A stretch of 64,000 nt of DNA from Trypanosoma brucei (Eukaryota), in NCBI GenBank assembly GCA_000002445.1, contig CP000067.1, positions 832,001 through 896,000 on the forward strand. The letters run 5' to 3'. The translations under genes and the position numbers were made by a program. This document shows positions 10,869 to 41,569 of the stretch, piece after piece (position 1 is the stretch's first letter; each line of letters starts with the position of its first letter). A model generated the notes under the pieces. It worked only from the letters and a program-made list of their open reading frames with translations, did not search any database and had not been told where the DNA came from.

Positions 10869-10926
10869 ACCACCGCCGGTTTCGCGGGCGAATTTCTGTT
10901 ATAAACTTACTCCCGCAGTAAAAATA

Positions 10927-18779: not shown

Positions 18780-19970
18780 TCAACTATTTCCAAATACAAA
18801 TGGGAGAAGAAGCAGAGCCACTCCTAGCAGAGTTTGCTGAACCCTTGCTACACTGTCACTCTCATTACTCTCTTTATCATTCCAATGAATATGTTTCACT
18901 ATTCCTAGTGTTTCTGTAAGTTCATTGGTTGTTTCCTTTTTTTCCAGAATATATCTGACTCTTTCTTCAAGTTCCAGAAGCAACCTATCGAGTACAGCTC
19001 GTTGAGCTGTGATGGAGGTGTTTCCTGCAGATATCTTTATGACGCTGGCACTCAGCAGATCGATTAGTTCCTGAAATTCTTCTCCAATAGAACTGAAGTT
19101 GGCAACGACGTTGTTATTCTGTGTGTAAAAGAGTCCTCCTGAAAGTTCATAAATGAGAGATTTCCTCCCCGAAGTGTAAGACTGATGTGTCGTCGTGATA
19201 TAGCAGCCATACTCCGAGTAGTTTCTGTAGTTTCCTGCATTTCCCATCGTTAAAGTGAGTCCTTCATCAAGAGGGTTTTTGTACTCAGCAAGGCTACCCT
19301 CGCTGCGCTGTAGCGGCTCAACTATGCAGTCTCTGGGAACACTGCCGCGTTTACCGTTCTTCATGCAATCGCCCGTTGCCCCTCCATCCACCACAAGACA
19401 ACAACTTAGAGTGCTAAGTGCCGCGTGGGCAAAACTCTCCACCGTGTCCTTAATCCAGTACGCGTACGAGTCAGACATATTCAGAAGGTTCCACGATGGC
19501 AACCTCATATATCCAAGCGACGAATGCATTTGCGCAACTAAATTTCTTAATTCATCTTTCAGTACTTTCATATCGCTCAAAAGCTTTATTATTTCAGTTA
19601 AAATTTCATCTTCTTCCGGAATTACTTCTTTCAAAACATCCACTAAAATTGTTTTTGTTTGAACACGTGCACTGTAGTGAGCTACAATTTTTTCACAGTC
19701 TTCCACTATTTTCTCCCCGAATTTCATATTATGTGTCACATTGTTCCTCAGTTCCCTCAGCTTCCTAACTATACTACAGATGGCATTTGCATCACTTTGT
19801 GTCAGTGCCTTGCCCTTACCCTTTTCATCACCCTCCGGTCCACTGTTAGCACATGCCACCACCAGAAAACTAAACATAATCACCACTCCTCCAACTGAAA
19901 TCATATTATCACCTTCATACACAAAACAAGCAAAAAGGAGCTTTGAAAGCATGTGCTTCTTATTCCCCAT
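18780..19970 (-). CDS. Array gene A2 (396 aa): predicted GPI-anchored surface glycoprotein
   Basis: The 5' ~400 nt are identical to A1 and A3. The central region is divergent. C-terminus LLGVALLLLPFVFGNS is hydrophobic. Confidence 0.75.
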   Translation of the reverse strand: MGNKKHMLSKLLFACFVYEGDNMISVGGVVIMFSFLVVACANSGPEGDEKGKGKALTQSDANAICSIVRKLRELRNNVTHNMKFGEKIVEDCEKIVAHYSARVQTKTILVDVLKEVIPEEDEILTEIIKLLSDMKVLKDELRNLVAQMHSSLGYMRLPSWNLLNMSDSYAYWIKDTVESFAHAALSTLSCCLVVDGGATGDCMKNGKRGSVPRDCIVEPLQRSEGSLAEYKNPLDEGLTLTMGNAGNYRNYSEYGCYITTTHQSYTSGRKSLIYELSGGLFYTQNNNVVANFSSIGEEFQELIDLLSASVIKISAGNTSITAQRAVLDRLLLELEERVRYILEKKETTNELTETLGIVKHIHWNDKESNESDSVARVQQTLLGVALLLLPFVFGNS

Positions 19971-20259
19971 ATCATACTGTTATTCAAGTAAAGACAAATC
20001 TTCGCTGACACATTATCAAGGCACCCAAAAACATGATATCGCAATGCGACCACACGTAGTCGGCCAGAAGCAGCAATAGCATATAAACACACATTCATAT
20101 TTGCACATGCATATTCATTTCGTGGTTATTGGACGGTTATTTTATGGTTATTTGCAAGAGGAGGGTGCAGTGAAAGTGTTAATACTGCTGACAGTTGTTG
20201 AGGCACAGGGTGTAAAAAGAGAAGGTGAGCGAAAGAGGCGTGTGTTCTCTTTTTCATTT

Positions 20260-21204
20260 TTAAGCTGTGGATATGGTGATGCTGCTGAAGATTGACTGGA
20301 GTTCCTTTTCGAGAGCGTCGATTCTGGAAGTTTGTTCCAACAGCTTGGAAGGTGTGGCTTCAATTTCGGAGATGATGTCGTTGATTTCTCTTAGAGGTGT
20401 AATAAAGGACTTGAATATCCTTGGTGAGTGAACAAACTCTACCAAGCCGTTTCCATTCGTGATGACCTTGGATTTACCCAAGTTACTTCTTATTCCTCTG
20501 TGCTTGATGATGTGCCCATAAGAGGTGGACGCCGCATTAACTTTATCGGCCAACTTGCTGCCTCCGTGTCCGCTCTGCGCTACTTTCTGTGTTTTCCTGT
20601 TTTGGAATGACAAGTCGATGTGTTCAGAGCTGTTTTCCAACACTCTAACGACGTCAGAAATGTCTTTCCCAACAAAAGTTGTCCCGCACTTGACGTATGC
20701 ACCATTATCCCCACAATAGCCATGCGACTTATTTACAATACATACTGCCTCTAATCCAACTCTGTACATCTCCACCATTGTGGCTGCATACCTGGTTCCG
20801 GTTCTTACAACATCCATCACCTTTTCCTCCAGATAAGAAACATTAAGGTTAAATTTCTTCCGTAAGTAGCTTTCACCTTCGAAAACACTCTCCATCTCAT
20901 TTAATATTTCCTTCATTTTATCACCCTTCTCTTTTCTCACAAAGTTTTTTACGTATACGTATAATTCTTTCCATGTTGTGAACCTTTCCTCTAGTGAATA
21001 CTTTTTCCCATACACCTCCTCTGCATGCACTCTAGTTCTTAAAAGTAGATCCTCCGTCACATTAATCATCCAATTAAGTTTCTTCACGACACAGTCGATT
21101 CTTTTTAGAGTAAAGCATGGTTCTCTATAACTCACCTGTGTTCTTCCAGCATATGGCAACACAAAGAAAACGACGGTAACGGTCACTTGACTTATCTTAA
21201 TCAT
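20260..21204 (-). CDS. Array gene B3 (314 aa): signal peptide, no anchor signal
   Basis: MIKISQVTVTVVFFVLPYA signal. Shares the IDCVVKKLNWMINV and DKMKEILNEMESVFEGESYLRKKF blocks. The C-terminus is identical to B2. Confidence 0.75.
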   Translation of the reverse strand: MIKISQVTVTVVFFVLPYAGRTQVSYREPCFTLKRIDCVVKKLNWMINVTEDLLLRTRVHAEEVYGKKYSLEERFTTWKELYVYVKNFVRKEKGDKMKEILNEMESVFEGESYLRKKFNLNVSYLEEKVMDVVRTGTRYAATMVEMYRVGLEAVCIVNKSHGYCGDNGAYVKCGTTFVGKDISDVVRVLENSSEHIDLSFQNRKTQKVAQSGHGGSKLADKVNAASTSYGHIIKHRGIRSNLGKSKVITNGNGLVEFVHSPRIFKSFITPLREINDIISEIEATPSKLLEQTSRIDALEKELQSIFSSITISTA

Positions 21205-21337
21205 TCCACACTCTTACTTCAGGAAAAACTAAGCCAGTTCGAAGAGCGTACCTTTTTTGGAAGGGCACATCGCTTACACGCTAGTAGTAATAAGCTGTCA
21301 ATTGCACAAATATTTTAGAAAATTACACACTTTCCAC

Positions 21338-22525
21338 CTATTTCCAAAATACAGAAAAGACGAAAAGAAGCAGAGCCACTTCTGATAGATTTGGTTTCTT
21401 GCTCATACCATCACTCTCATAACTCTCATTATCATACCAGGAAACATCTTCTATGCTTCCTAATCTTTTCGTAACATCCATGACTCTCTTTTTCCTTTTA
21501 AGGATATCTCCAACTTCTTCCTCAAACCTCAGTAACAAGCTGTGGAGTATAGTTCGTTGACCTGTGATAGATGTGTTCCACGTGAAAATGTCGCTGATAC
21601 TAGTGTTCAGTTGATCGATTAGTTCCTGAAATTCTTTTCCAACAGAACTGAAGTTGGCAACGACGTTGTTATTCTGTGTGTAAAAGAGTCCTCCTGAAAG
21701 TTCATTTATAAAGGATTTCTTTGTATTAAAGCCACCTGCGGTGCTTGTGATGTAGCAACCGTAACTATTTGGGGTTTTACCGTAGTTTCCTGAATTTCCC
21801 ATAGTCAAACTGAGTTCTGTATTAAGAGGATTTTCATACTCAGCAAGGCTACCCTCGCTGTGCTGTGGTGGCTCAACTATGCAGTCTCTGGGAACTATTC
21901 CTCGTTTTCGGTCAAAGGGACAATCTTCCATTGACCCTCCATCTACCACAAGACAGCAACTCCCGGGGCTAAACGCTGCATAGTGAAAAAAATCCACCAT
22001 ATCCTTAATCCAGTACGCATATGAGTCCGATATATTTACAAGGTTCCACGATGGCAACCTCATAGCCCGCAGTGAAGCATTCATGCTCGTAATTGTCTTC
22101 CCTAATCCATCCCTCAGTTCCCCCATCTTCTCCAGGATTCTTTCCATCCCACTGAAACTTGACTTTTCTTCTGCCATTACTTTCTCCAACACGCTCACCA
22201 GCATTTTCTTAGACATAACTTTCGCGCCGTAGTAACTTTTCACGTCTTCAGCCTCGTCCACTATTTTCTCCCCGAATTTCATATTATGTGTCACATTGTT
22301 CCTCAGCTCCCTCAGCTTCCTAACTATACTACAGATGGCATTTGCATCACTTTGTGTCAGTGCCTTGCCCTTACCCTTTTCATCACCCTCCGGTCCACTG
22401 TTAGCACATGCCACCACCAGAAAACTAAACATAATCACCACTCCTCCAACTGAAATCATATTATCACCTTCATACACAAAACAAGCAAAAAGGAGCTTTG
22501 AAAGCATGTGCTTCTTATTCCCCAT
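21338..22525 (-). CDS. Array gene A3 (395 aa): predicted GPI-anchored surface glycoprotein
   Basis: Same N-terminus as A1 and A2. Motif CCLVVDGGSMEDC. C-terminus LSEVALLLFVFSVFWK. Confidence 0.75.
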   Translation of the reverse strand: MGNKKHMLSKLLFACFVYEGDNMISVGGVVIMFSFLVVACANSGPEGDEKGKGKALTQSDANAICSIVRKLRELRNNVTHNMKFGEKIVDEAEDVKSYYGAKVMSKKMLVSVLEKVMAEEKSSFSGMERILEKMGELRDGLGKTITSMNASLRAMRLPSWNLVNISDSYAYWIKDMVDFFHYAAFSPGSCCLVVDGGSMEDCPFDRKRGIVPRDCIVEPPQHSEGSLAEYENPLNTELSLTMGNSGNYGKTPNSYGCYITSTAGGFNTKKSFINELSGGLFYTQNNNVVANFSSVGKEFQELIDQLNTSISDIFTWNTSITGQRTILHSLLLRFEEEVGDILKRKKRVMDVTKRLGSIEDVSWYDNESYESDGMSKKPNLSEVALLLFVFSVFWK

Positions 22526-22813
22526 ATCATACTGTTATTCAAGTAAAGACAAATCTTCGCTGACACATTATCAAGGCACCCAAAAACATGATATCGCAAT
22601 GCGACCACACGTAGTCGGCCAGAAGCAGCAATAGCATATAAACACACATTCATATTTGCACATGCATATTCATTTCATGGTTATTGGACGGTTATTTTAT
22701 GGTTATTTGCAAGAGGAGGGTGCAGTGAAAGTGTTAATACTGCTGATGCTTGTAATTAACATTGGCTCAAAAGGAATTATGTTCACGCATTTTTTTTATT
22801 ATACTGAAGACGC

Positions 22814-23740
22814 TCAAAGGCTGTTAAAGAGGGATTCAAGTTTCTTTTCGAGAATAGAAAACTTGTGAACACGTTCCGACAGCTTGGAAGGTGTGGCTTC
22901 AACTTCGGAGGTGAGATTACCGACTTCCCTTAGATGTGTGACAAACAACTTGAGAAGCTTCGCTGCACTCACGTGTTCTACCAAGTCGCGTTCATCCATG
23001 AGAACTCTGGCCTTTCCCAAACTATTACCTATTCCTCTGTGCTTGATGACACGTCCAAACGTGGTCGATACATTATGAACTCTATCAGCCAGCTTGTTTC
23101 CCCCTTTACTCCAGTGACCTCCGTTCTCAAACCTTAGATCTATATTTTCTTCAGTGCCGCTACCAAATTCAGCAACGATAATAGATAAATTTCCCCCAGA
23201 GAAGGCTCTCTCGCATGTAACATTGGCTTCATAAATTTCACAACTTTTTGGTACTTCTTTTCCAGAACGCACAGCTTCCAATCCAACTCTGTACATCTCC
23301 TCCATTGTGGCTGAATACCTGATACCGACTCTTACAATAGTCATCATTTTTTTTTCAAAGTAAGAAACATTAAGGTTAAAGTTTTTCTGCAAGTAGCTTT
23401 CAGTTTCAACGATTCTCTCCATCTCATTTAATATTTCCTTCATTTTATCACCCTTCTGTTTTTTCATAAATGGTTTTACGTACACGAATAATCGTTCCCA
23501 GGCTGCGTATCTTTCCTCCAGCAAATACTTCTTTTTATATACCTTTTCTGCATGCACTCTAGCTCTTAAAAGTAGATCCTCCGTCACATTAATCATCCAA
23601 TTAAGCTTCTTCACGACACAGTCAATTTGCTTAAGAGTTGAGAGAGATTCATCTCCGTGTGTTGTTTCCGCTATAACCCCCCAAAAAACAACTAGAACAA
23701 CTAAAGTGACAGCAAACACCACCTGAATCATCCTCATCAT
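22814..23740 (-). CDS. Array gene B4 (308 aa): signal peptide, no anchor signal
   Basis: MMRMIQVVFAVTLVVLVVFWGVIA signal. Conserved B blocks with a more divergent C-terminal half. Confidence 0.7.
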   Translation of the reverse strand: MMRMIQVVFAVTLVVLVVFWGVIAETTHGDESLSTLKQIDCVVKKLNWMINVTEDLLLRARVHAEKVYKKKYLLEERYAAWERLFVYVKPFMKKQKGDKMKEILNEMERIVETESYLQKNFNLNVSYFEKKMMTIVRVGIRYSATMEEMYRVGLEAVRSGKEVPKSCEIYEANVTCERAFSGGNLSIIVAEFGSGTEENIDLRFENGGHWSKGGNKLADRVHNVSTTFGRVIKHRGIGNSLGKARVLMDERDLVEHVSAAKLLKLFVTHLREVGNLTSEVEATPSKLSERVHKFSILEKKLESLFNSL

Positions 23741-23870
23741 ATGTACCTATTCCACGAAAAGCGAATCACAGGAAAACGTGTAGCCTTTAGTAAGGGTACA
23801 ACACACGCGGTAGTAGAACATAATTGTCGTCTGTATAAATATTTTAGATCACTTACTTCTCCACATACTT

Positions 23871-25019
23871 TTAGAAGAATACCAGGAAGAATAGAAACAG
23901 ACTCACCCCTCGGAGGGTTGGTTGCGTCCCCATACCATCGCTATTCCCACTCTCGTTACCAAACCATGGAATGTTCTTCGTGCTACCTAATGCTTCCGTA
24001 ATTGCTTTGTTCTTTTCTTTCTCAAGGACATGTCTGATTTCTTTCTTCAGCTTAAGTAGCAAACCATCGAGTACAGCTCGTTGTCTTGTAATTGATGTGT
24101 TCCACGCGGAAAAATTGTTTGTGACTCTTCTTAGCGGATCGATTAGCTCCTGAAATTCCTTTCCAACAAAAGTGAAGTTGGCCATAAGTCTGTTATTCTG
24201 TGTGTAAAAGAGGCCACCAGAAAGTTCATAAATGAGAGATTTTTTCCCCCTGCTGTAAGTGTCATTTGTTGTTGTGATGAAGCAGCCACATAGCGGGTAT
24301 TCGCCTTCGTCCCCTGCATTTCCCATCGTTAAAGTGAGTCCTTCATCAAGAGGGTTTTTGTACTCAGCAAGGCCACCCTCGCTGCGCTGTGGCGGGTAAA
24401 TAGTGCAATCCGTGGGGACACTGCCGCGTTTACCACCTCTTATGCAATCTCCCGTTGCCCCTCCATCCACCACAAGACAACAATTCCCGCTTCCGAATGC
24501 TGTCTGGGCAAAGAGTTCTACCATATCTTTCACCCAGTACGCATACGAGTCAGACATATTTGTGAGGTTCCACATTTGCACACTCATGCACCCGAGTGAA
24601 GCGTTCACATTCGTAATACTTCTTTTCAACACCTGGATCGGCTCCTCCATATCACTCAGCAGCTTTCCCATCACGCTCAACTTTTCTCCTTCTTCAGGAA
24701 TTAGTTTTCCCAAAACCTTCACTAACATTTTCTTTGCTTCAACACGTGTGCTGTAGTAAGTAGCAACGTTTTCGCCATTGTCCACGATTTTTTCACCCAA
24801 TTTCATATTACGCGTCACGTTATTTGCCAACTCCCTCAACTGTTTGACCACATTGCAAATGGCATCTGCATCACTTTGCGTCAGCGCCTTGCCCTTACCC
24901 TCGATGTCACCCTCCGCTTGACCGTAAGCACATACCACCACTAAACAAGCCACAACCATTCCCCTTTTGAGTGGCATCATATTATCCCCTCCTTCCAGAA
25001 ACGCAAGAAAGGCAAACAA
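23871..25019 (-). CDS. Array gene A4 (382 aa): divergent A-type predicted GPI-anchored surface glycoprotein
   Basis: Different signal peptide (MMPLKRGMVVACLVVVCAYG), but it shares ALTQSDADAICNVVKQLRELANNVT, CCLVVDGGATGDCIRGGKRGSVP and the ELSGGLFYTQNN blocks. C-terminus LRGVSLFLFFLVFF. Confidence 0.7.
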   Translation of the reverse strand: MFAFLAFLEGGDNMMPLKRGMVVACLVVVCAYGQAEGDIEGKGKALTQSDADAICNVVKQLRELANNVTRNMKLGEKIVDNGENVATYYSTRVEAKKMLVKVLGKLIPEEGEKLSVMGKLLSDMEEPIQVLKRSITNVNASLGCMSVQMWNLTNMSDSYAYWVKDMVELFAQTAFGSGNCCLVVDGGATGDCIRGGKRGSVPTDCTIYPPQRSEGGLAEYKNPLDEGLTLTMGNAGDEGEYPLCGCFITTTNDTYSRGKKSLIYELSGGLFYTQNNRLMANFTFVGKEFQELIDPLRRVTNNFSAWNTSITRQRAVLDGLLLKLKKEIRHVLEKEKNKAITEALGSTKNIPWFGNESGNSDGMGTQPTLRGVSLFLFFLVFF

Positions 25020-25092: not shown

Positions 25093-26325
25093 TTACGAAA
25101 ACACCAACAAAACAAAAATGCTCACCATTAAATCGAAATGGGCATCACCCTCCGTGTCAACATCCAAATTTTCTGCCTTGCCCCAGATATCTATGTTTCC
25201 TCCAAGTTTGTACTCAAGAAACATTTCCTCAGCGTCATGCTGTAAATCTTCCAACTCGTAAATATGGGAGTTTGCTTCACTTTCATACTTCTCCATGTCT
25301 TCCATGTTCTTTGTGGCATTGGTGAGACGATTGTGCCACGGTATGCCGCCATGGGATAAGGTGTGTTTGTAATTCACACACGTTGTTCCGGGTCTGTGGC
25401 CATCACATAGAAATGTTTCATTACTCGTATCATTCACGTGGCCAAATACGCCTTCCACCTGAAACTTGTCCTGCCTCATGTTAACAGATTTATCAAACTC
25501 CTCCAATGCAGCCTTTAACAGCTTTGAGTTGGATGCAATGTGCCTGTACACGCATCCGCGCTTTACCACTTGCCAAGCATCTTTGAGTGTCATTGATGAA
25601 TTAACCTCACATTTCTCTTCGGCCAAGGCGCACTCATTGCTCATGCCCGTCCACTTATTTTTTTCTGGTCGCCTCAAGTAGGTCCTGCAGGGCGAACTAT
25701 GCCCGTTGTAATAGTAGCTGCTGCTGTTCGCCTCGTCTTTCGCCTCTCCCACACATACACAAAAAAAGTCGTTAACAAGTGTTTTTCCAGTTTCATTACC
25801 GTTGCTTCCACAGCTTTCCAGAGCAGATTCATTGCTGTTGAACAGTAAACTTTTATTAGTTTCCATAATATCGTCAATGGGTCTGTTGGTCTTATGTGCC
25901 TCATCCACTAAATCACCATACACAGCTTTCATCATGCTCTCCTCAGCCTTACTGCTCTCCCGCATCGCCCTCTTTCTATTCCTGTCAATCTCTCCCTTCA
26001 CCGCTTTTGCTCTTTTGTATAGTTTCTCAATCCCTTCACGCGCCTTTTGGCTCACAGAAGTTTCTTTTCCGTTCGCTCTCGCCTCACTCACCATTACCTC
26101 GAACCTCTTCATAATCTCATCTTCCTTCTCACGGTTTCTAAATTCCGGCCTTGGCACCTTTGCTTGAGTGATCCTGTAAATCTTACAAAGGATCTCAAAC
26201 TCTCCGGTGTTGTGTTGGTAATCAGTAATGTTGAAAACACCCTTCTGTTGACCCTGACTTCCTCTTATTGATCCCCATAAAAGAGCAACCAACAATAGCA
26301 CCCCAGCGCAACCACGTCTCTTCAT
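25093..26325 (-). CDS. Gene C1 (410 aa): predicted GPI-anchored, Cys-containing, charged helical surface protein; paralog of C2
   Basis: Signal MKRRGCAGVLLLVALLWGSIRG. Motifs LVNDFFCVCVGE and CVNYKHTL are shared with C2. Multiple NxS/T sites. Hydrophobic C-terminus LMVSIFVLLVFS. Confidence 0.7.
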   Translation of the reverse strand: MKRRGCAGVLLLVALLWGSIRGSQGQQKGVFNITDYQHNTGEFEILCKIYRITQAKVPRPEFRNREKEDEIMKRFEVMVSEARANGKETSVSQKAREGIEKLYKRAKAVKGEIDRNRKRAMRESSKAEESMMKAVYGDLVDEAHKTNRPIDDIMETNKSLLFNSNESALESCGSNGNETGKTLVNDFFCVCVGEAKDEANSSSYYYNGHSSPCRTYLRRPEKNKWTGMSNECALAEEKCEVNSSMTLKDAWQVVKRGCVYRHIASNSKLLKAALEEFDKSVNMRQDKFQVEGVFGHVNDTSNETFLCDGHRPGTTCVNYKHTLSHGGIPWHNRLTNATKNMEDMEKYESEANSHIYELEDLQHDAEEMFLEYKLGGNIDIWGKAENLDVDTEGDAHFDLMVSIFVLLVFS

Positions 26326-26435: not shown

Positions 26436-27767
26436 TTAAGCGACAAAGGCAGTCAGCGCCATCATTGCTAAAACAGTCAAAGATATTGAAAAGCCGGCCC
26501 CATCCTCTTCCACCTCGTTCACTTCACTCTCCATCATTAAGTGTTCCAAATTCAAGTTAATCTTTGCTGCTGCACTTTTCATATTCTCCGCTAATTTCCA
26601 CAGCCTTCCAAGCAAAACCTTTGCCTCCTTATTGTGCCTTTCCATTTCCACCAGGTACTTCTCCGCATCCAGCAACCTCAGCTGCCACTCAATTCCCTTC
26701 TGCGTCAGAAGTCTATACGCATAATTCACGCACATTTGGTCATTCTTCCCCGTGCATATGTTTTCGCTGCGGTCAAAAACACCCGTATGTATTTTTTTTG
26801 CTCTCCCAAACACGTAGGTCCGAAATCCCTCCGATTCTTTCATGTTCATGATTATATTCTCCCTCTGCCTTCCAAGAAGCTTATTGAACTCCCTCACTGC
26901 ATCTTGGATTTTTTCTGGCGTTATCAATTTCAAATTTTCATTTTTTGGACAGGCTTCATCCTTTATCTTAAACCAGCCGGGGCCAAAAGCCACATCACTT
27001 CCATCATACGACACATTTTTCCACAGTTTCTTTCTACCCGGCCCCTTGATACTTTTGTGACAAACGGTCTCATTATTCTCTTCTCCAACGCACAAGCAAA
27101 AAAAGTCCCCCACGAGCGAACGCCCAGCCATGGCATCCTCAGTCGAGGGATGATACCCAGCTCCGCACGTTTCCTCTGCGGAGTTTCCTATTAAAGTGTC
27201 TCCGGTGTGCACCGCAAACTTTTCAAACTCCTCCTTCTCCATCAGCCTCCCAGCATTCGCCCCATAAACGACTTGCGCCATTCTTTCGAGTGCAAATTTC
27301 CTTGACACATTCGCCAGGCGCCGTTCCTCTCTTATTCCACTCACGAGTATGGTTGCCTTTTCCGCTAGTTTTATTAACTTCTCATGTGTTACCCTCCACC
27401 GAATAATATCATTTGCACGATGCATACTCATCTTAGCGGCCCCACTATTGTTAACTGTTCCTTTCCTCCTTTCCATAGCTTCTTTATACAAGGAATCCTT
27501 CACGTATGTCGCTTTCACAAACATCTGTAGCCTGTCGATGATACTCGTTAGATTCGCAGGCTCTTCCATTATTTTCTCTGGTTCCCCCTCCGCCAACCTC
27601 AATATCTCACACATTTGGTTGAACTCTTTTTCATTCACTAACTTTGAATCCTCTCCACACACCAAGTGGAAGGCACCAAAGGCCGTTAACAAGAATGTCA
27701 CTATGATTTCCTTCATTATCAAAGCCCTGCTACAAACAAAAAGAAAGTAAAGGCACCAACAAGACAA
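26436..27767 (-). CDS. Gene C2 (443 aa): predicted GPI-anchored surface protein; paralog of C1
   Basis: The probable start is the internal MKEIIVTFLLTAFGAFHLVCG signal at 27716. Motifs LVGDFFCLCVGE and CVNYAYRL. Hydrophobic C-terminus SLTVLAMMALTAFVA. Confidence 0.7.
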   Translation of the reverse strand: MSCWCLYFLFVCSRALIMKEIIVTFLLTAFGAFHLVCGEDSKLVNEKEFNQMCEILRLAEGEPEKIMEEPANLTSIIDRLQMFVKATYVKDSLYKEAMERRKGTVNNSGAAKMSMHRANDIIRWRVTHEKLIKLAEKATILVSGIREERRLANVSRKFALERMAQVVYGANAGRLMEKEEFEKFAVHTGDTLIGNSAEETCGAGYHPSTEDAMAGRSLVGDFFCLCVGEENNETVCHKSIKGPGRKKLWKNVSYDGSDVAFGPGWFKIKDEACPKNENLKLITPEKIQDAVREFNKLLGRQRENIIMNMKESEGFRTYVFGRAKKIHTGVFDRSENICTGKNDQMCVNYAYRLLTQKGIEWQLRLLDAEKYLVEMERHNKEAKVLLGRLWKLAENMKSAAAKINLNLEHLMMESEVNEVEEDGAGFSISLTVLAMMALTAFVA

Positions 27768-30493: not shown

Positions 30494-32662
30494 TTAGCTC
30501 TCCAGATAAGTGCGGAACTCTTTTGTCATGACAGGACGGTCGCCAAGTAAAAGCCAAAGCTCGTGCGCTGTAAGTGTCTCTTGTCTTGCCAAAAGGCCCG
30601 CCAGTGCACGCACCTCCCTAAGATATTGTTTTAATATGGACCGCGCCCTGTTGAGCGCCTCGGTGATGAGCTTGTGAACGGCCTCATCCACAATATCCTC
30701 CTTTAATGGTCCAAACGGTTTCTGAATGCTGTCTTCCTGGTCTAAGTTGTAACCAAAGTGACCAATATTCTCGGGATCCATCCCGTATGTGCAGACCACC
30801 TGTCGCGCCCTGTTTGTAGCATGCTGCACATCATCTGCAGCAGATGTTGAGACGTCCTTAAAGAAGTACTCCTCCGCTACGTAGCCTCCCAACTGTGCCA
30901 CCATACCTTGCATGAGTTGTTCCTGCGTCGAAATAAAAGCGGTTTGAGGCAACTTTTGGGTTACGCCGGAGCGATGCTGCCCACGAGGAAGGATAGTGGT
31001 TTTGATGACGGGATCGGTTTTCTCTTGAAACCAATGAAGAACGACCTTACCCGCTTCATGAAATGAAATGCGCTCCCGCTCTGCATCGCTCAGCTTCACT
31101 GCACTCTTCTCCAATCCAACTAGCACTCGGTCCACTGCTTGGTGGAAATGGCGTGTTGAGACGTATTCCTTTCCCTCCCTCGCGGCTTGGATAGCGGCCT
31201 CGTTGCAAATGTTAAATATATCCGCACCACTGCATCCAGGGGTAAGCGCGGCGACGGTTTCTGCGAAGCCCCGAATAGTTCCCGACGGCTCAAGCTTAAG
31301 TGGAGCCAAGTGAACCTCGGCGATGGCAACCCTATCCTTATGTGAAGGTTTTTCCAGCGTTATCTTTCGGTCGAAACGCCCGGAGCGCGTGAGGGCGTTG
31401 TCGAGAATGTCGGCACGATTAGTGGCTGCCAGTACCATTATTCCTGTGGAATCCTTGAAACCATCCATTTCAGAAAGAAACGCATTCAGCGTACCTCGCA
31501 GGCTCCCTCCGGAGTCGGATTTTCTTTTCCTCCCGAAGGCATCGATTTCATCCACAAAAACGACGCACGGCTTGCACTCGTGAGCTTGTTTGAAGAGTTC
31601 CCGAGCACGCTGCGCTCCAACGCCGACGTACACTTCCTCAAACTCACTTCCAGAACAACTGAGAAAAGGAACCATGGCCTCACCAGCAATGGCTTTCGCG
31701 AGAAGTGTTTTCCCCACACCAGGTGGCCCGTCAAGCAGAACGCCTTTGGGAAGTTTGGCCCCAAGTGCCTGGTAGCGGCTGGGGTTCTTCAAGAAATCAA
31801 TCACTTCAACCACCTCGTGTTTTGCCTCAGTTAACCCCGCCACATCACTTAGCCGAGTGGCAACGGAAAGTTCACGCTTGAATGAATAACTACTCTTCTC
31901 TGCCGTGAGGGATGCGAGCCTGGCCGATGTGTTAAATAAGGAATGCGTTAGGGCCAAAAGGGGCAGGAGACAAAGGAGTAACATAGGCACCCATGGGTAA
32001 TACGTTTGGATTCCAACGAGTATATCCTTGTTACTATCACATGAAGCTTCAAAAGCCCTGTAATCTACGAAGTTCCGTACGCCAAGAGCCTCGCCCTTTT
32101 GCCCACGGAAGACCGCCCTGTGTCCCGCCAAATCCACTTCCACAGTGGTATAGCCACTGATGTCCCCTTCTGCGCGCGAATGCAAAAAGTAAAAGCGCAC
32201 CGCCATCGTGACTCCAAACAAACACGAAAAGATGACCAACATCCGTACACGTCTCGCCTTGCGTGCCTTGGCTGAAATAATGGCTATGAGCATACGCTCG
32301 TCAGAAGACATTGCGTAGGCACGATTCACAGATTCCGAAGAAGGGCGTGAAAATGGAAGCCTCCGCAGTAACGACACCGAGTAAAATGCCTCAAAACCTT
32401 TGGGGTAGCGTTTCTCAGATGAGAGCCCCGGCGCGCGCCCGACAGCGGCATTGCTATCACTGGTGTTGGTATTGCTGGTATTGTTGTTGCTTCTGGACTT
32501 TGAGGAAACACCTCCTGCAACTGTTGCCTTCTCGCCCTCCTTCGGTGCGTCGGCCTTTCCGTCACTATTGCTGCCAGTTGCACAAAAACACTTGGATGTT
32601 TGAAGGGCCGCCGCGGCAAATGACAAGTGGGCTGATCGGGGTATCCTAAACATATTGTACAC
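30494..32662 (-). CDS. FtsH-family AAA+ membrane protein (mitochondrial-type) with a degenerate zinc-binding motif
   Basis: Two N-terminal TM helices. Walker A GPPGVGKT, Walker [10 protein letters not shown], second region of homology ATNRADILD. The protease-domain motif reads FHEAGKVV where canonical FtsH has HEAGH. Confidence 0.85.
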
Positions 32663-33212: not shown

Positions 33213-35234
33213 TCACAACGCCCTCTGGCATGGAGATGAGCGAGTCACAAAACTCTCTATGCGCCGAGTTTGTTCATCAAGCTCCCTTGACTGTGCATAG
33301 AAGCGGCGCAACAGCTCTACAGCCCGCTCTGCCGACTTCCTCCTCTTTTCCTCCGTGGCTTCAAAAAATGCAAGGCGAATAAAATCATCGGCCATTTCTA
33401 CATGATCCGTCCCATAAAGCGTATTATCCAACTCCACCTTCTTTACGAGGTGCTCCACACATTTCCCATCATCTCTTAACCGGTTGAAAGCCTTTGCGAG
33501 GGCCATGTGGACTTTTGGAACCATAGTTTGAGGTGGCCTCGGCGGTGGGCACAAATGCTCCATTGTGAGGGCATAACTCTGCGAAAGGACATTTACCGCG
33601 GTCTCAAACTGACCCTCACGTATCAAACGACATCCTTTTTGGTACAAATCACTCGCCTGAATGTAATACGCCTTTTTCTCAGACGTGACGCTTTCATCCT
33701 TGTCATCACGGCAGGCGCTACACTCGCACAAGAAGCCACACCGCTCAACCAGCGAGCGGCGGCGAGTGTGGGCACTTACAGCTTTATACTTTGTCATGTT
33801 GTGATAAGCAATGGTGAGTTCCTCCCCTGCCTGAACAGAACGTATGGCACGGATACAGAGTTGCAAAGAACATCCAAGAGGGTTTCCCACAAATGATGCA
33901 AAACAGTTTGGTTGACATGAGTGACGGAAGCGCGCTGCAGTAACGTACACCGCCTTTCCCACTGGTATGGTGCGTGACTCATCGATAAGAGCCTCGCGTG
34001 TCTCCGTGTTAATGTTGATCTGCGTACCGGTATGAAACTTCAGCTCGAACGCAGAGAGCGTAACTTGACGTTGGGCTAATCGTAAGCGATCCGCACCATC
34101 CGCATCCGCGGCACCAAGCACCAGAGCTAATAAACTCACTGCTGTCTCATAACCCCCAATAACTGCTGCGGGATACAACTCACCTGTAAAGTTGCTGCGA
34201 AGGGGAAGCTCCTCACCACGCAATACCTGCTCCGATCGCAGCATTCGGCACGCCACCAACGCATCGACGGGACACAAATGAAAGAAGGCGTTAGTGGTTT
34301 CGTATTGCCCATCACGCTCCCAACTTGTGGCGGCGCAAACTTCACTGCAGAAAAGACCCCGAGCCGACTTGCCACGCGAGCGGTAAGCGGCACCCGAGTA
34401 GAGAAGCCGAGTAGCCTTTAAGCAAAAGCAACACCGCACCCCCCAATGATCATCATACAATGCGTAAGCAACAGGAACCTCCCTGATGATATCCCCGGGA
34501 TCCAAAGGACCCTTCGCCACAACACCACTCACTCCCGTCCCATATGAAATATTTGCAGAACCAGAAACAACGGTAGCGTTTCCGCAAACAACATTGCCAC
34601 TGGAACCATCGCAACATCCGTCACTCCTACCGGCGTGAAGAATTTTCTTCACAACCTCCTCTCCATTCGCACCTGATGCCTCCTCTCTGGAAGCCGCCTC
34701 CATATCCTTCGTGCCTTCCTCAATAAATCCCAAGCGCTGCAAACAGGAGCCGCGCCTCTGGAGAGCTTTCCAGTACGATGGCGTAAGTGTAAAGGCGGCA
34801 TGAGCATCGGCCAGTGCCTCTGTGATGCGACCTTGTGCCATGAACGCTGCACTGCGGTTATTAATAAGTGCTGCCAATGTATCATCTTCACTAGCTGACA
34901 TCATTCCGCGAGTATACATGAGGATGCATTCTTCCAATTTCTTGCAACTATATGCATCATTCCCCCGACTCTTCCACTCCAGCGCATCGGTGTCGTTAAC
35001 ATTACATGCATGACTTACCCCCGCCTCCAAACTCTTCAGTGCGTTCACAACACCGGCCTTATCTTCTGCTTCTCGCAAGTATTTTAATGTTTCCTCAACT
35101 GGTTTCAAACCACTTCCAGGAGGAAACTCTTTGGATAACGTTAATAACATATCCCTCCATGAACCCAACTGAGCTGCGGCCTCTCGTCTAGCGGCAGCCT
35201 GCGCCGCAACCTCAGGGGACACACCACCACTCAT
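33213..35234 (-). CDS. SET-domain protein with MYND-type zinc finger and TPR-like region (SMYD-like)
   Basis: RFRHSCQPNCFASF, ELTIAYHN and the CGFLCECSACRD post-SET region. A Cys-rich MYND-like segment (CCFCLKATR...CSEVCAATSW) is present. Confidence 0.75.
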   Translation of the reverse strand: MSGGVSPEVAAQAAARREAAAQLGSWRDMLLTLSKEFPPGSGLKPVEETLKYLREAEDKAGVVNALKSLEAGVSHACNVNDTDALEWKSRGNDAYSCKKLEECILMYTRGMMSASEDDTLAALINNRSAAFMAQGRITEALADAHAAFTLTPSYWKALQRRGSCLQRLGFIEEGTKDMEAASREEASGANGEEVVKKILHAGRSDGCCDGSSGNVVCGNATVVSGSANISYGTGVSGVVAKGPLDPGDIIREVPVAYALYDDHWGVRCCFCLKATRLLYSGAAYRSRGKSARGLFCSEVCAATSWERDGQYETTNAFFHLCPVDALVACRMLRSEQVLRGEELPLRSNFTGELYPAAVIGGYETAVSLLALVLGAADADGADRLRLAQRQVTLSAFELKFHTGTQININTETREALIDESRTIPVGKAVYVTAARFRHSCQPNCFASFVGNPLGCSLQLCIRAIRSVQAGEELTIAYHNMTKYKAVSAHTRRRSLVERCGFLCECSACRDDKDESVTSEKKAYYIQASDLYQKGCRLIREGQFETAVNVLSQSYALTMEHLCPPPRPPQTMVPKVHMALAKAFNRLRDDGKCVEHLVKKVELDNTLYGTDHVEMADDFIRLAFFEATEEKRRKSAERAVELLRRFYAQSRELDEQTRRIESFVTRSSPCQRAL

Positions 35235-35280
35235 TTCACTAAGCTTCCCGCTACTGCAATATATAAATTATACCAATACA

Positions 35281-35326
35281 CACAAACACACACACACATA
35301 TACACAGAAAGAGAGAGAGAGAGAAA
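35281..35326. repeat. Compound (CA)n/(GA)n microsatellite in the SET-UPRT intergenic region
   Basis: cacaaacacacacacacatatacacagaaagagagagagagag. Confidence 0.8.
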
Positions 35327-37335
35327 AAAAAAAACGGAGAAAAAAAAAAAGAGAAAAAGTGTGTGTCTCATTTTCGGAAGTCGCAGATAATTGAGGGACG
35401 TTACAAATGTCATGAGAAGTGGTAAAGTCAAATGAGCATCCCCATGCAATACTTTTAACGGAAAATAATAACAACGCGTACATTACACATACAAAACATA
35501 CACACACACACACACACTTACACATATACGCGCGCACGCACAGATACGTATACGTTTTAAATGTGGCACGACCCCACTCAGAACCTTTTTTTTTCCTTTG
35601 AAAAGGGAAAACGAAACAAAAAAAAAAGAGTAAAAAAATTTATGGGGAATGAAAAACCCGCACACGCAAGCCTTTTCACTTCTCCCCGTACGTGGCCTCA
35701 CACGCACAGAGATGAAATAAAATAAAATAAAGATGGAAATGGAAATAGAAATGGAAATGGAACTACTGCAGACTACGAAGTGCTGAAAGCCGAAAGAATA
35801 AAGGGAGGAGTGATGATGTCTCCACCATTCATTCTTTTTTTAATGTATATATTTTTTATATCTTTTTTTTCCCCCTTTTAAAAGAGAAAAAAAAAAAGAG
35901 GAGCACAATTCATATCACAATCCATTTCCCGGGGGCCCCACACCATAAGAAGTTCGTAGTTGATCATTCGGTTGCTCAGCGGCGTCGGCGATACAAATTA
36001 AAGGAAATTAAAACAAAGAAAGAAAAAGAAAAAGAAAAATAAGGAAAAAAGAAGAAACATGTCAGAAAAGAAGCAGGTTCTGCTTATGAGTATTATGACC
36101 TTCCACTATGCGTATATATTTATGTAAGTATATATGTAAGTGCGTGTGTGTGCTTGTGTGCATTTTTTTCTTTTCTTTTTCTTTTTTTTTTATTTTTTGT
36201 GTCCTGTTGTTGCTTGTCCGTTGTTGTACAGTTTCCCGTAATGATGTTGAGGGGGAAATAAATTATGAAAAGGAATTTAAAAAAAGAAAAAAAGAAAAAC
36301 GGGGGCAAAAAGAACTGGCGCGCGGTAACAGGAGACATAAACGTAAGGAAGGGGAAAGAAAGAGACGGAGAATGGAAATTAATAATAATAATAATAAACA
36401 GTCGCTCGTTGAACCTTTCGCACAACTAAACGTCATCACCACTTCTTTCTTGTTTCTTTTTATTTTGTTTTATTCACGTAAACAAAACTTTAAAAAAAAC
36501 GAAAAGAGAAGAGAAGAAAAAAGGAAAAAGAGGGAAAAACAAAAAAAAGGGGGGGAAGGAGTGGTAGCGCGTAATTTTTTTTAAAAAAAAAACTTTGGCT
36601 AACGGTCATGTCGGGCCTCACCGTAGTCACGGCCAAATAAAAAGAAAAAAAAACAATAAAAACAAGATAAACTTTTTTCTCTTCAATAAAGAAGAAAAAT
36701 AAAGAGGAGGAATGGAGTGAAGTGAAACTTATATCCATCTCTACGTTTTGGCCACTCGTTGAACACACTTTTTTTTTTGTTTAAAACACAGACACATAAA
36801 TGCCTACCACCTCCCTCTACAAATACACACATATATAAATAAACATATATGAATATATATATATATATGTATGTTAAATCTCACATGTGTGCAACTGCGT
36901 GCTGTAATCACTTCCACTCACACGTCAAAATTCCCACCATTCTCTTTTTTTTCCCCCTTTTTCGTTCCCCTTCCTTCTTTTGTTGTTTCCTTCATTGTCG
37001 TTTTGTTATCTTGTTATCTTGTCTTGTCTTGACTTGACTTGACTTATCATGTTTCTTTTTGTTGTTGTTTTTTTTTTGGGGGGGGGGGTTTCGTTTTTGT
37101 TTTCATTCTTTCCATTTTTTTTTAATTCTATTTTTTCTTTTTTCGTATTCTTTTTCTTTTTCTTAATTTCCTCTCTTTCCTAACAAAAACTCTTTTTTTC
37201 TATGTACAGAGGCAATATGCCATATCTTTCTTCTTTATATATATATATATATATATTTATTTATTTAATTTATTTTTTATTTATTGACCTCCACTTCAAT
37301 TTTTTTTTTTCACTTCGCTTCCCATTTGCGCTCGC

Positions 37336-38058
37336 TCATTCGCATGTGCCGAAGTATCGGTCGCCAAAATCCCCTAAACCGGGAACAATATATTTTCTTG
37401 AATCCAGTCCAGGATCTAGCGCAGCGGAGACGACATTAACATGTGGGAATGCAGTTAAATATCGACGAAGGCCCTCAGGGCAGGAAATGAGGTTGAGGAA
37501 AATAATATTCTCCTCTGGTACATTATATTCATTAATAAGTATCTCTGTTGCCTTAATAACACTACCACCGGTGGCAATCATCGGATCCAGCAGCAGCACA
37601 TGGCGCCCGCTCACATCACTGGGAATCTTGCTGTAATTAAAACGCTCATCAGGTGCCTTTTCCAAACTCTTCTCATCACGCTGAACGAGGATTTTTCCAA
37701 TACGAACACCTCGGCAAGTTTCCCGCAACACACGTTCCATAGCCTCGCCAGCACGTAAAATACTGATGCCAATTATTCCTTGTCCATCTGTCATACAACC
37801 CTGATATTTAGAACCTGTGGGTGTGATGACATCATATGGAATGGTGGGAATGAGATTAAGTGCCGCCTCCACAATGAGGCGAATGATACGCTCGCTGTAA
37901 AAAACAAAGTCGGTGCGACCCGTTTCTCTCTGTCGTATTATGGTGAAGAGATAATGAAGTTGATTCGTCTGAGGAAGCAGGTGGAAAGTCGGAAATTCCT
38001 TCAAGAGCGCTTCCTCCTGTTCATTGTAATTCCTTCCCGCGTTGTCGTGTAGAGCCAT
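37336..38058 (-). CDS. UPRT: Uracil phosphoribosyltransferase
   Basis: 240 aa. PRPP-binding motif LLLDPMIATGGS, and a C-terminal YIVPGLGDFGDRYFGT that is characteristic of UPRTases. Confidence 0.85.
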   Translation of the reverse strand: MALHDNAGRNYNEQEEALLKEFPTFHLLPQTNQLHYLFTIIRQRETGRTDFVFYSERIIRLIVEAALNLIPTIPYDVITPTGSKYQGCMTDGQGIIGISILRAGEAMERVLRETCRGVRIGKILVQRDEKSLEKAPDERFNYSKIPSDVSGRHVLLLDPMIATGGSVIKATEILINEYNVPEENIIFLNLISCPEGLRRYLTAFPHVNVVSAALDPGLDSRKYIVPGLGDFGDRYFGTCE

Positions 38059-38947
38059 ATTATAAAATATTCTTAAACTTACCTACTTACTTCTCTTTCC
38101 CTCTCTTTTTTTCCTTTTCTTCTTCTATCTTATTGATAAAGTGTCTCTACTTTCTTCACTTCCTCCTCCCTTCAAGTGCTTGTGGGACGCGTACCGTGAA
38201 ATTAATTACAAGCACAAGAAGGGAAAGATAAATTAAGGAAGGAAGGAAAGAAAGAAAAAATAGACAAACAACCAACTCCTGAAGTCGCTGTTGCAAATCA
38301 ACTGAAAGCGCGCTGTCCCCTTCCATAACTCATGTCTTCACACAAATGTTGCGAAGCTGCGGGTAACGGAAGCTCTCAAATGGAAATTTACATGGCGCAA
38401 ATTAAAATAATCCCGCACTATGCGAGTAAATGTTGAAAAAAAAAAAGCAACAACAACAGAGATAGAAACACACACAAGTACATACATACACACACACATA
38501 CACACACATTAATTCACCGTTCGCGTGAGCCCGACCAATGAAATAAAAGAAAAAAAAGCCTACGAGGTGCGGGTGAAAATACGCCTGCTAACAAATCAGA
38601 ATCCCAGCGGAATCAAGATGTGTCCCCCCCCCTAAAAAAAAAAAAAAAAGAGAAGAAGCGACAATAACTTTCCTTCTCTCTTACGTTCGTCTTAGTTGCG
38701 TGCCGGCATCTCTGTTATCTTTACTCCTGCTTTTCCTCTTTTTTCCTCATTTCCTTTTTCTTTTTCTTTTTGCTTGCCTCTTTCTCTTCTACTTTTCTGT
38801 TCTTCAGACCACAAACACAAACACAGATGCACATGTACATGTACACACGAACGTGTGCCACTGGAAACAAACAAAAGCAAAGAAAGAAAGAAAGAAAGGG
38901 GGGAAAAACAAAACAAAACATGATGCCGAAGGAAAGCTGTAAGAATT

Positions 38948-39532
38948 CTAACGATGATTTGAGAGAAAGTTCATGAAATCTTCCAAACTGATTTTCCCGT
39001 CGTTATCGAAATCTGCTGGGCGGATGAGGAGCGTCAACTCATTTGGTGACAAATCCCCAAATCCAATAGTTTTCATAATATCCGCCAGCACCACAACATC
39101 CACCGAACCGCTGCCCTGCGGATCATAAATTCGAAATGCTTCGCGTATGGGATCAAAACGCAAACTTCCGGCAACTGCTGGCGGCATGGCCGTCCGTGTG
39201 GTGTTGAAGTTGTCAATAATATTCCATAACGTGTCTACTGTAAAAGGGGCGCCACTCGCTTCATCAAGAAGGAATTTATACTCGGATGATGTCATATTGG
39301 GGTAAAATGCTGAAAGACGTTCCTTAAGTGTAGCCGGCTTTAGGCATTTATGGTTATGCAAATCAAAAAAAGCGAAGGCCGCTTCCACATCAGCACGGCT
39401 AAGTGTTACGTTTGGATCCTTCACAGCATTTGTCACAGATGAAGTGGAAGCATTTTTGCTGCTGTCGCCTACAGTTCGCGTAGAGGCTGAAGCAGGCATC
39501 GGTGGTGGGCTTTTAACTAAATGCAAATCCAA
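38948..39532 (-). CDS. EF-hand calcium-binding domain protein
   Basis: 194 aa. Canonical EF loop DFDNDGKISLEDF at the C-terminus, with additional degenerate EF-like segments. Confidence 0.6.
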   Translation of the reverse strand: MDLHLVKSPPPMPASASTRTVGDSSKNASTSSVTNAVKDPNVTLSRADVEAAFAFFDLHNHKCLKPATLKERLSAFYPNMTSSEYKFLLDEASGAPFTVDTLWNIIDNFNTTRTAMPPAVAGSLRFDPIREAFRIYDPQGSGSVDVVVLADIMKTIGFGDLSPNELTLLIRPADFDNDGKISLEDFMNFLSNHR

Positions 39533-40258
39533 ATAATCAAATGCACAACTAAAAAGTGTATGAAGCGTATGTAATCGCTCAAACTAAAGTCAACGCATGC
39601 TCACGTGAGAGGTGAAGACGAAAACACAGAAAAATGGAAAAGAGAGAAGGAAATAAAGCACCTGAAGTGAATCGATGCAGTCAAAAAAGTGTCTGTTCAA
39701 CATGCAGGAAACATATATATATATATATTGTAAACGCAGTTGAGCTGTGAGCACACCAACGGGCGTTTAAATTAAAAATAATTAAGAGAAAAATCAAAAA
39801 CGAATGGCAAAACGATGGAACGCAATAAAACTATAAATAGAAAAAATACTAGAAACGAAAAACAAATAAATAATAAGAACATGAGTAATAAGAATGATAA
39901 CAATAATGACAGAAACATCCGCGCGCACCGACAAAACAAAAAATGAACTGCAATGTGAAGAGAAGTTAACAAAGTTTCACAGATATCGCGCAGAACACAT
40001 TCCAGTGATGAGTGACACACCGTAGCTGCAGAAGACAGAGAAACACAAAATGCAGACACCCTTTGATGCAGAACAGTTGCCTTCGAGAAAAGGCAACAGG
40101 GAAGTCAACCAAAGGAAAAGAAGAAAACTATGTCCGCAAAACAAAACGAAGGGGGAAAACTTTAAAAAAAAAAAGATCCAACACACAGAACAAACGCCCG
40201 CACTGAAATTGGTCACTCGTACACACAAACAAATGTACATATGTGTACTAAACTCATT

Positions 40259-41569
40259 TTAGCGTGCACATCCCTCTTTGAAAGACGGCGGCGCCGGAAG
40301 GTGCCGCTGACGAAACGGCCCACAAACTGTTGTGGGCATTCTGTTGGCCAACATGAGGGCCATAACTTGTGCCCGTGTCTTTCGTTTGTTCATCCACACC
40401 ACTTCATTTTTCATCGCACCATCCACAACGTGGCCACTGAGCTCCGCGCGACGCTGAACCCGCCGTCTCACACTGGACTGGCGCACGCGCAATAAAGTGA
40501 TGATTGGGTCCAATTGGCGGCGATGGCGATTACAGATGAATCCCCAGTGATTGCGGCGTCCATAGCAACGGGGACACTTCAACTCTCCTTCCCACCGCGG
40601 CAAAAGGGCATTGACACTCGCAATTGCATCCTCCACCTCGAGCATTGTATCGGTTGATAGACATCTAAATCGACAGGTGTGAGGGAGCTCCCGTACCCTC
40701 TCAACCTCCACAATGTGTGCTGTGAGAAAATCGTGAACCAACGCTTCAGGAAGCCACAATTTGAATGTTATGCCGTTGTTTCCCGCGGCAGCACGCGGTA
40801 GAAGCGAAACAAAAAACATCGGACATTTCCACCCAATGGGCACGCGCCTCGGCACTTTATCCCCACGTTCCGTCCTCATTGGTGGCTCATCTAAACGACT
40901 TCCTTCAGGCGCAAAAGTGAGTTTCTCCCATAGCGCCTGTGCTTCGCCCGCCAGACTTCGCATGGCCGTGCGTTGAAAGTGCCGGAAGGGTAACCGACTC
41001 CCCCCCGTTCTGATATGCTCATGGAATATTCGAGAATAAACGGAACGGATTTCCTGAGGGCGAGGACAAACCATTCCAGCGAATGGCCCTCTGCTTCCCC
41101 CATGCCTCGCCGTATCGATCGTTTGGTTATAGTCGACGTGTGTGACATGTTGAGTGATGACAACCGGAGCGACTTCGAAACGACAAACACGACGTACCAT
41201 ACGGCATGCGGCACCGCCGCCGGCACTGGGGGGCTGAGAGCGCAACTTAATGGTTCGCCGCTCTTCGGCTGCAGGCGGGTGTCTACGGACGATCCAGGCG
41301 AGAGTGTGCCGCAGGCCGTAAGCTCCGCTGCAAAACTGCATGTGCAACTGACAGCCTTTGCAGTTGGGGCAGCGAATGCATGGTGAAACAAAGGGACGAG
41401 TCACAGGAAAGGAGAAGCATCTGTGAAGTGGACTAACGGCAGCTGCCATTTCACCAAGGGAAAAATAAATGCGCACCGAATCCGATGACGGGTGAGAACG
41501 GCTTTCTGGTCCAGCGTCTTCATTGAATGGAAGCGCCTCTTTGTTGTGAGTAGGGAAAGGCAAGTTCAT
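40259..41569 (-). CDS. Hypothetical protein with CxxC zinc-ribbon-like motifs
   Basis: 436-aa ORF, co-oriented with its neighbours. CIRCPNCKGC and KCPRCYG motifs. No family is recognised. Confidence 0.55.
   Translation of the reverse strand: MNLPFPTHNKEALPFNEDAGPESRSHPSSDSVRIYFSLGEMAAAVSPLHRCFSFPVTRPFVSPCIRCPNCKGCQLHMQFCSGAYGLRHTLAWIVRRHPPAAEERRTIKLRSQPPSAGGGAACRMVRRVCRFEVAPVVITQHVTHVDYNQTIDTARHGGSRGPFAGMVCPRPQEIRSVYSRIFHEHIRTGGSRLPFRHFQRTAMRSLAGEAQALWEKLTFAPEGSRLDEPPMRTERGDKVPRRVPIGWKCPMFFVSLLPRAAAGNNGITFKLWLPEALVHDFLTAHIVEVERVRELPHTCRFRCLSTDTMLEVEDAIASVNALLPRWEGELKCPRCYGRRNHWGFICNRHRRQLDPIITLLRVRQSSVRRRVQRRAELSGHVVDGAMKNEVVWMNKRKTRAQVMALMLANRMPTTVCGPFRQRHLPAPPSFKEGCAR

Follow-up and report, generated by a model that had tools for sequence, protein, structure and literature searches.

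The window analyzed here, a stretch of 64,000 nucleotides from Trypanosoma brucei (contig CP000067.1, positions 832,001 to 896,000 of the forward strand), contains on its minus strand the coding sequence of an FtsH/m-AAA-type protein (30494..32662), which forms an uninterrupted open reading frame (ORF) of 722 codons from a GTG to the stop codon at 30494..30496. The deposited protein starts at the ATG of 32651..32653 and has 719 residues; the ORF product taken from Met4 is 100% identical to XP_844480.1/AAZ10921.1 (P0121; T. brucei brucei TREU927 / T. b. gambiense), which is publicly annotated as a zinc metallopeptidase. Quality control in the mitochondrial inner membrane depends mainly on FtsH-type proteases, of which T. 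brucei reportedly possesses an unusually large set, with six FtsH homologues. By its fold, its motifs and its closest relatives the protein is a member of the FtsH/M41 family (MEROPS M41) and probably of m-AAA type, but it lacks the HEXXH zinc-binding and catalytic motif that is typical of this family and carries the degenerate sequence HEAGK in its place. Residues are numbered below according to the 722-codon ORF.

The gene is probably Tb927.4.3300, also called FtsH33, because its T. congolense orthologue is named TCIL3000_4_2990 (chromosome 4), because its gene spacing fits relative to a class-I myosin gene of the window (48014..51517) that is taken to be TbMyo1 (presumably Tb927.4.3380), and because Tb927.4.3300 is the sole chromosome-4 'mitochondrial zinc metallopeptidase' found in the literature. 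Tb927.4.3300/FtsH33 has been detected in mitochondrial proteomics of T. brucei, in the class 'Membrane integral' (supplement, bioRxiv 10.64898/2026.06.30.735475). A first-pass annotation of the window, made from the sequence alone, had envisaged a kinetoplastid and mitochondrial counterpart of the inactive FtsH proteins of plants, and this fits both the T. brucei origin of the gene and the presence of its probable product in the mitochondrial membrane proteome.

The N-terminal segment of 23 residues (32585..32653, on the minus strand as are all features of this protein) is basic, hydroxylated and devoid of acidic residues, and is therefore read from the sequence as a putative mitochondrial presequence. 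Two transmembrane helices are predicted by Kyte-Doolittle hydropathy (19-residue window, values above 1.5) at aa 141-161 (32180..32242) and aa 220-243 (31934..32005), separated by about 58 residues, the second of which is aligned by phmmer with the second transmembrane helix of E. coli FtsH. These two hydrophobic segments correspond to the N-terminal membrane anchor of the M41 family, and their arrangement, which is that of m-AAA proteases and bacterial FtsH, is predicted to place the catalytic domains in the matrix. Pfam does not find the FtsH_ext domain (PF06480) between the two helices of the query; this domain is also absent from the precomputed Pfam lists of every member of the clade of close homologues described below, whereas it is listed for most canonical matches.

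The membrane anchor is followed by an AAA+ ATPase core at aa 308-436 (31355..31741; Pfam PF00004, 1.2e-39), an AAA lid domain, AAA_lid_3, at aa 468-507 (31142..31261; PF17862, 9.9e-12) and a Peptidase M41 domain at aa 524-702 (30557..31093; PF01434, 5.7e-40, covering profile positions 3-188 of 191). The ATPase module contains Walker A (GPPGVGKT, 31706..31729), the pore-1 loop VYVG (31622..31633), the Tyr of which is also found in a yeast Afg3-like sequence, Walker B (VFVDEID, 31541..31561) and the second region of homology (31367..31423) with both arginine fingers in RSGRFDR, as well as DGF and the sensor-1 TNR. All of these elements are invariant across 62 aligned homologues, including the AAA+ signature of the M41 family (20 residues together with RSGRFDR), and the statement of the first-pass annotation that Walker A, Walker B and the second region of homology are intact is fully borne out. 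The AlphaFold2 (AF2) model of aa 255-722, with a mean predicted local distance difference test (pLDDT) of 82.7, superposes on chain 6nyy_F of human AFG3L2 with template-modelling scores (TM-scores) of 0.86/0.88 and also matches FtsH structures; together with the Pfam assignment, this establishes the M41 peptidase fold. The match of the same model to chain 8xku_E of the plant Ycf2-FtsHi complex is weaker than that to AFG3L2 (TM-score 0.78).

The degenerate zinc-binding motif lies at aa 535-539 (31046..31060), that is residues 532-536 of the 719-residue protein, and the reverse complement of these positions reads CAT GAA GCG GGT AAG, translated as H-E-A-G-K. The motif retains its first ligand His and its catalytic Glu but has Lys in place of the second ligand His, as the first-pass annotation had noticed; codons and alignments agree on this point. 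When the protein is compared by phmmer with all solved structures, human AFG3L2 ranks first by sequence (6nyy, 3.8e-122), ahead of bacterial FtsH and yeast Yme1. With no gaps nearby, HEAGK falls in the same columns as the HQAGH of AFG3L2 (6nyy is an E-to-Q mutant) and as the HEAGH of FtsH from Thermotoga maritima and E. coli (E-values 1e-106 to 1e-122). The possibility that the alignment of HEAGK is misleading and that a true HEXXH is to be sought in another part of the protein has next to no plausibility and is ruled out by these alignments and by a regular-expression scan, which finds no other HEXXH in the 722 residues; moreover, the AF2 model places the motif within a long helix, where pLDDT is about 90-95. 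The third zinc ligand of the M41 family, an Asp about 74 residues past the motif, is present as Asp611 (30830..30832), which is aligned with the Asp of GAANDIE in T. maritima FtsH (chain index 355 = D500). We take D500 to be the third zinc ligand of that enzyme, as has reportedly been published.

The Lys could also be put down to an error of sequencing or assembly or to a mutation of one strain, or the gene could be a decaying pseudogene, although the sole argument for this is the a priori one that a single-codon difference could be erroneous. HEAGK is common to five independent sequences of the T. brucei group, namely TREU927/gambiense, T. equiperdum, T. b. equiperdum and two Logan read assemblies, which differ elsewhere by 1-8 residues while keeping the motif, and a sequencing error is therefore excluded. 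Furthermore, the ORF is uninterrupted, both of its domains are highly conserved, the product of the probable gene has been seen by mass spectrometry and, as detailed below, the His is missing in every trypanosomatid orthologue listed; comparison of strains and orthologues thus rules out an error or a strain variant, and we attach hardly any credence to this explanation as a whole. In the literature searched we found no mention of a degenerate HEXXH in kinetoplastid FtsH, an earlier notice in Kovalinka et al. 2020 being possible.

The best 120 matches listed in our homologue search, to which all counts of orthologues and clade members refer, include a distinct group of 46 proteins that comprises every named trypanosomatid match, from seven Trypanosoma species, Leishmania, Leptomonas, Novymonas, Phytomonas and Angomonas; a second trypanosomatid FtsH paralogue does not appear among these best 120 matches. 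The second motif His is absent in all 23 listed trypanosomatid orthologues, the fifth motif position being occupied by Val in 11, Ile in 7, Thr in 3, Leu in 1 (T. congolense) and Lys in 1 (the T. brucei group), with the third-ligand Asp kept except in P0024, which has Gly. When orthologues are checked for the same loss, as the first-pass annotation had advised, no trypanosomatid sequence listed has HEAGH. Five further members of the clade (P0030/38/40/42/44) carry E, V, V, V and D, respectively, at the fifth position and have Lys instead of the third-ligand Asp; two others (P0031/36) have Ile and another two (P0048/49) Lys, both pairs with the Asp kept, while the 14 more distant members retain HEAGH and the Asp. 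His-Glu-Ala-Gly occupies motif positions 1-4 in 46 of the 46 clade members, and outside the clade HE[A/S]GH is found in 66 of the 68 listed matches, the motif not being found in P0070 and P0071.

The extreme C-terminus of the T. brucei protein (30494..30541) consists of 15 residues of the form DRPVM[TS]KEF[RQ]TYLES, which are near-invariant across the whole clade including its HEAGH-bearing members and unlike the tails of canonical m-AAA and FtsH proteins. Such a conserved tail suggests a possible clade-specific interaction. Among the matches to the query with very high scores there are also proteins of about 1100-1200 aa (P0027, P0029, P0032, P0034, P0035 and P0051-P0067), bacterial where the source is named, which have an intact HEAGH near residue 890-975 and precomputed Pfam lists with many overlapping P-loop/AAA families in addition to M41. 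They resemble FtsH proteins extended at the N-terminus by a long additional part, which may be a second ATPase module.

In neighbor-joining (NJ) trees with 200 bootstrap replicates, the whole clade containing the trypanosomatids has 100% bootstrap support and a long stem. Within it, the trypanosomatids group with the sequences having Asp changed to Lys (99.5%), and the main HEAGH-bearing subgroup is recovered with 100% support, as is the association of the HEAGK pair P0048/49 with the HEAGH-bearing P0047. The position of P0031/36 is divided between the trypanosomatids plus the Asp-to-Lys group (54.5%) and the HEAGH-bearing subgroup (39.5%). Because P0048/49 cluster with P0047, the second motif His must have been lost on at least two independent occasions, one of them at the base of trypanosomatids or below it; the presence of HEAGH-bearing members inside the same clade shows that the loss arose within this lineage. 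The loss is old and fixed in trypanosomatids, among which Lys is confined to the T. brucei group. The first-pass annotation had stressed that the change from His (CAT/CAC) to Lys (AAG) needs two base changes, which is correct as arithmetic but does not hold as history, given an ancient loss followed by Val, Ile, Thr, Leu or Lys; since the closest orthologues carry Leu, Ile or Val, the immediate ancestral residue was probably not His.

Gene order provides further observations on the same clade. P0030 is a positional orthologue of the T. brucei gene, having the same SET/TPR gene immediately upstream as in the window (locus L001 compared); the upstream ORF of another locus, L004, was considered as a SET gene and rejected. 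In L004 (514..4628) and L008 (1093..6868), which derive from two HEAGH-bearing relatives, the gene next after FtsH, on the same strand, encodes a Myo1-type myosin, while the T. brucei myosin gene is found some 15 kb upstream of FtsH and is separated from it by the SET/TPR gene and others. The FtsH-myosin neighbourhood is shared with HEAGH-bearing relatives, with its order rearranged in T. brucei. P0030 (HEAGE, Asp to Lys) and P0038 (HEAGV, Asp to Lys) come from the same sequencing runs of one project, L002 and L007 both being from SRR22803237, and represent either a pair of paralogues from a single organism or two organisms sampled together.

The third-ligand Asp has gone in some descendants that lack the His, becoming Lys in P0030/38/40/42/44, which form a sister or nested branch, and Gly in P0024; this later loss would be in the direction expected for a metal site out of use. 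The divergence of the M41 domain relative to that of the AAA domain is 2.1 in trypanosomatids, 2.2 in the Asp-to-Lys group and 2.4 in HEAGH-bearing relatives, and both domains are under purifying selection. Relaxed selection on the whole M41 domain, as for a useless domain, is not seen, since the ratio is 2.1 without the His versus 2.4 with it.

These patterns bear on the possibility that the protein is a working metalloprotease with a re-wired site, in which His535 and Asp611, together with water or another side chain such as the clade-specific His563, would bind zinc or a different metal, with Glu536 acting as general base. The motif His and Glu, invariant throughout the clade, and Asp611, kept in 22 of 23 trypanosomatids, would be accounted for by such a site, as would the relative constraint on the M41 domain, which is the same as in HEAGH-bearing relatives. 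A candidate ligand, His563 (30974..30976), lies at the tip of the beta-hairpin that follows the motif helix (PRGQHRSG; position from the alignment, hairpin from the AF2 secondary structure). The hairpin reads PRG[RQ]HR[TS]G in trypanosomatids, P0030 and P0044, none of which has the second motif His, versus PRGGNMTG in the nearest HEAGH-bearing relatives and PRGxxALG in canonical FtsH. However, the hairpin His is absent in P0031/36, P0038/40/42 and P0048/49, so that the association amounts to about one evolutionary event, and the hairpin turn is variable in canonical FtsH; His563 could be either a compensating residue or simply lineage history. The lost ligand position, moreover, varies among V, I, T, L, K, E and D and offers no common substitute, while the Asp has also disappeared from P0024 and from P0030/38/40/42/44, the latter group still keeping the gene. 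In zincins in general, replacement of either motif His abolishes zinc binding and activity, and on balance we consider a re-wired site unlikely.

The reading that we favour, and hold to be likely, is that of an m-AAA-type FtsH homologue of the mitochondrial inner membrane which works as an ATP-driven unfoldase or extractor and is unable to cleave alone. We infer the loss of zinc binding and of proteolysis from the sequence, as we do the membrane topology, the oligomeric partners and the substrates of the protein. Several points weigh against this reading. The inactivity is deduced from one residue; the M41 domain displays no relaxation of constraint; no clade member has lost the first His or the Glu, and nearly all trypanosomatids keep the Asp, a degree of conservation that one would not expect of a wholly dead site and that contrasts with the plant FtsHi proteins, in which almost all site residues are gone. 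A replacement ligand such as the clade-specific His563 may exist, and the assignment to Tb927.4.3300, being built indirectly from the name of a chromosome-4 orthologue and the spacing to the myosin gene, is itself no more than probable.

The closest known systems include the mitochondrial m-AAA proteases (human AFG3L2/paraplegin and yeast Yta10/Yta12), with which the T. brucei protein shares two transmembrane helices (predicted in its case), AAA+, lid and M41 domains in this order, the same ATPase motifs and the same third-ligand Asp. AFG3L2 is the best match by sequence among solved structures and second by fold, with the highest TM-score of 0.88 (6nyy_F), the best fold matches of the AF2 model being an E. 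coli FtsH model and AFG3L2 chains (43-44% identity). NJ trees set the clade beside m-AAA proteins of Paramecium, yeast and fish, on its long stem and at a node without bootstrap value. The differences from m-AAA proteases consist of HEAGK versus HEAGH, the lack of a detectable FtsH_ext, RSGRFDR versus RPGRFDR, the divergent hairpin after the motif helix and, for the clade containing the trypanosomatids, its own highly conserved C-terminus and its long, fully supported stem branch. Bacterial FtsH proteins (E. coli, T. maritima, Thermus thermophilus) have the same domain architecture, about 40% identity over the soluble part and an alignable second transmembrane region, but they are homo-hexamers in which the HEXXH...D zinc site is intact and a periplasmic FtsH_ext is present.

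Plant FtsHi1-5 are FtsH homologues that are dead as proteases and function as an ATP-driven import motor, with nearly the whole protease site gone (Table 2, PMC11266112), and are the only proteins listed under M41 in a 2024 review of inactive metallopeptidases (PMC11266112). The likeness to FtsHi suggested by the first-pass annotation stands insofar as the T. brucei protein combines a usable AAA+ module with a degenerate HEXXH, as do the FtsHi proteins of the Ycf2-FtsHi complex, which are thought to be motors or scaffolds and not proteases. It does not extend to the extent of decay, given that the T. brucei protein has lost one of three ligands and kept the Glu, a far milder degeneration, and that its first His, Glu and Asp are conserved in an M41 domain that diverges no faster than in HEAGH-bearing relatives. 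The protein is also of independent origin, with 29-33% identity to chains of the FtsHi complex versus 43-44% to AFG3L2, and it is mitochondrial in an organism without a plastid, whereas FtsHi proteins reside in the plastid envelope; we know of no Ycf2-like partner for it. By this comparison it would be a functional analogue of plant FtsHi, not a relative.

Trypanosome mitochondria offer a precedent of their own in rhomboid-like pseudoproteases, of which TimRhom I and II are examples. TbRPLP, a rhomboid-like pseudoprotease of the trypanosome inner membrane, has lost its catalytic residues and serves protein biogenesis (bioRxiv 10.64898/2026.06.30.735475). It is a protease homologue without catalytic residues in the same organelle of the same organism, but with an unrelated fold and mechanism and no ATPase. 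In the immunoprecipitation table of that study, FtsH33 is not enriched with TbRPLP (log2 about 0.3) versus an enrichment of FtsH14 (about 1.2; supplement, bioRxiv 10.64898/2026.06.30.735475).

Under the favoured reading of an ATP-driven unfoldase or extractor, the two N-terminal helices would anchor the protein in the inner membrane with its AAA+ and M41 domains facing the matrix. Because the ATPase motor is complete and strongly conserved, it is expected to form a hexameric ring that binds and hydrolyzes ATP and pulls polypeptides through the central pore by means of the pore-loop Tyr. Below this motor, the protease chamber would lack one of three zinc ligands, with Val, Ile, Thr, Leu or Lys in its place; since none of these residues is a shared metal ligand, the subunit most likely can neither hold the catalytic zinc nor cut peptide bonds alone. 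The M41 domain would most likely be retained because its ring keeps the hexamer assembled, and substrate may still bind at the remnant site. The protein could act in one of two forms, the first being a protease-dead subunit in mixed hexamers with protease-competent FtsH paralogues. Yeast Yta10/Yta12 are said to tolerate a mutation of the catalytic site in one of their two subunits, and a protease-dead subunit in a mixed hexamer would therefore be viable. The second form would be a homo-hexameric chaperone or dislocase, as in the FtsHi motor of chloroplasts.

A bolder reading would have an m-AAA protease independently turned, in trypanosomatids, into a protease-dead ATP-driven motor of the inner membrane, a mitochondrial analogue of Ycf2-FtsHi in which the remnant His, Glu and Asp bind substrate without cutting it, and which serves protein insertion, extraction or complex assembly in the unusual mitochondrion of trypanosomes and not the mere dilution of active subunits in a mixed protease; this we regard as speculative and quite improbable. 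FtsH-derived pseudo-proteases have been described so far only in plant chloroplasts, and the T. brucei protein is probably another. If it is indeed an ancient and conserved protease-dead motor, ATP-driven unfolding or extraction would be separated from degradation in the T. brucei mitochondrion, giving a concrete hypothesis for a division of labour among the FtsH paralogues of this organism and a second independent case, besides chloroplast FtsHi, of the conversion of FtsH into a pseudo-protease. In that case 'zinc metallopeptidase', as databases name the protein, would be a misleading label for this gene in all trypanosomatid genomes. Since the decay is partial, with His, Glu and Asp kept and one His lost, the reversion of one residue would make a clean experiment.

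The remainder of the window contains several features beyond the FtsH gene. At 15180..25019, on the minus strand, there is a tandem array composed of four diverged pairs of two alternating genes: the longer ones, of about 382-396 aa, lie at 16255..17439, 18780..19970, 21338..22525 and 23871..25019, and the shorter ones, of about 308-335 aa, at 15180..16187, 17729..18658, 20260..21204 and 22814..23740. Copies of the same type are 52-78% identical, both types start with signal peptide-like sequences and the longer type has a hydrophobic C-terminal tail; neither type gives a Pfam match. The alternation of long and short genes is a layout that may resemble that of heterodimeric ESAG6/7-type receptor genes. 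Two minus-strand ORFs with VSG_B domains, at 25093..26325 (5.8e-27) and 26436..27767 (4.5e-36), are only 24% identical to each other; their location is chromosome-internal, with the tandem array on one side and the FtsH gene on the other. Two ORF-poor stretches of about 5-6 kb are also present. The first (9246..15180) has no ORF of 250 aa or more and marks the switch from plus-strand genes, which extend to 9246, to a long minus-strand run from 15180, while the second (35234..40259) contains only ORFs of up to 240 aa and lies between the SET/TPR gene and the next gene.

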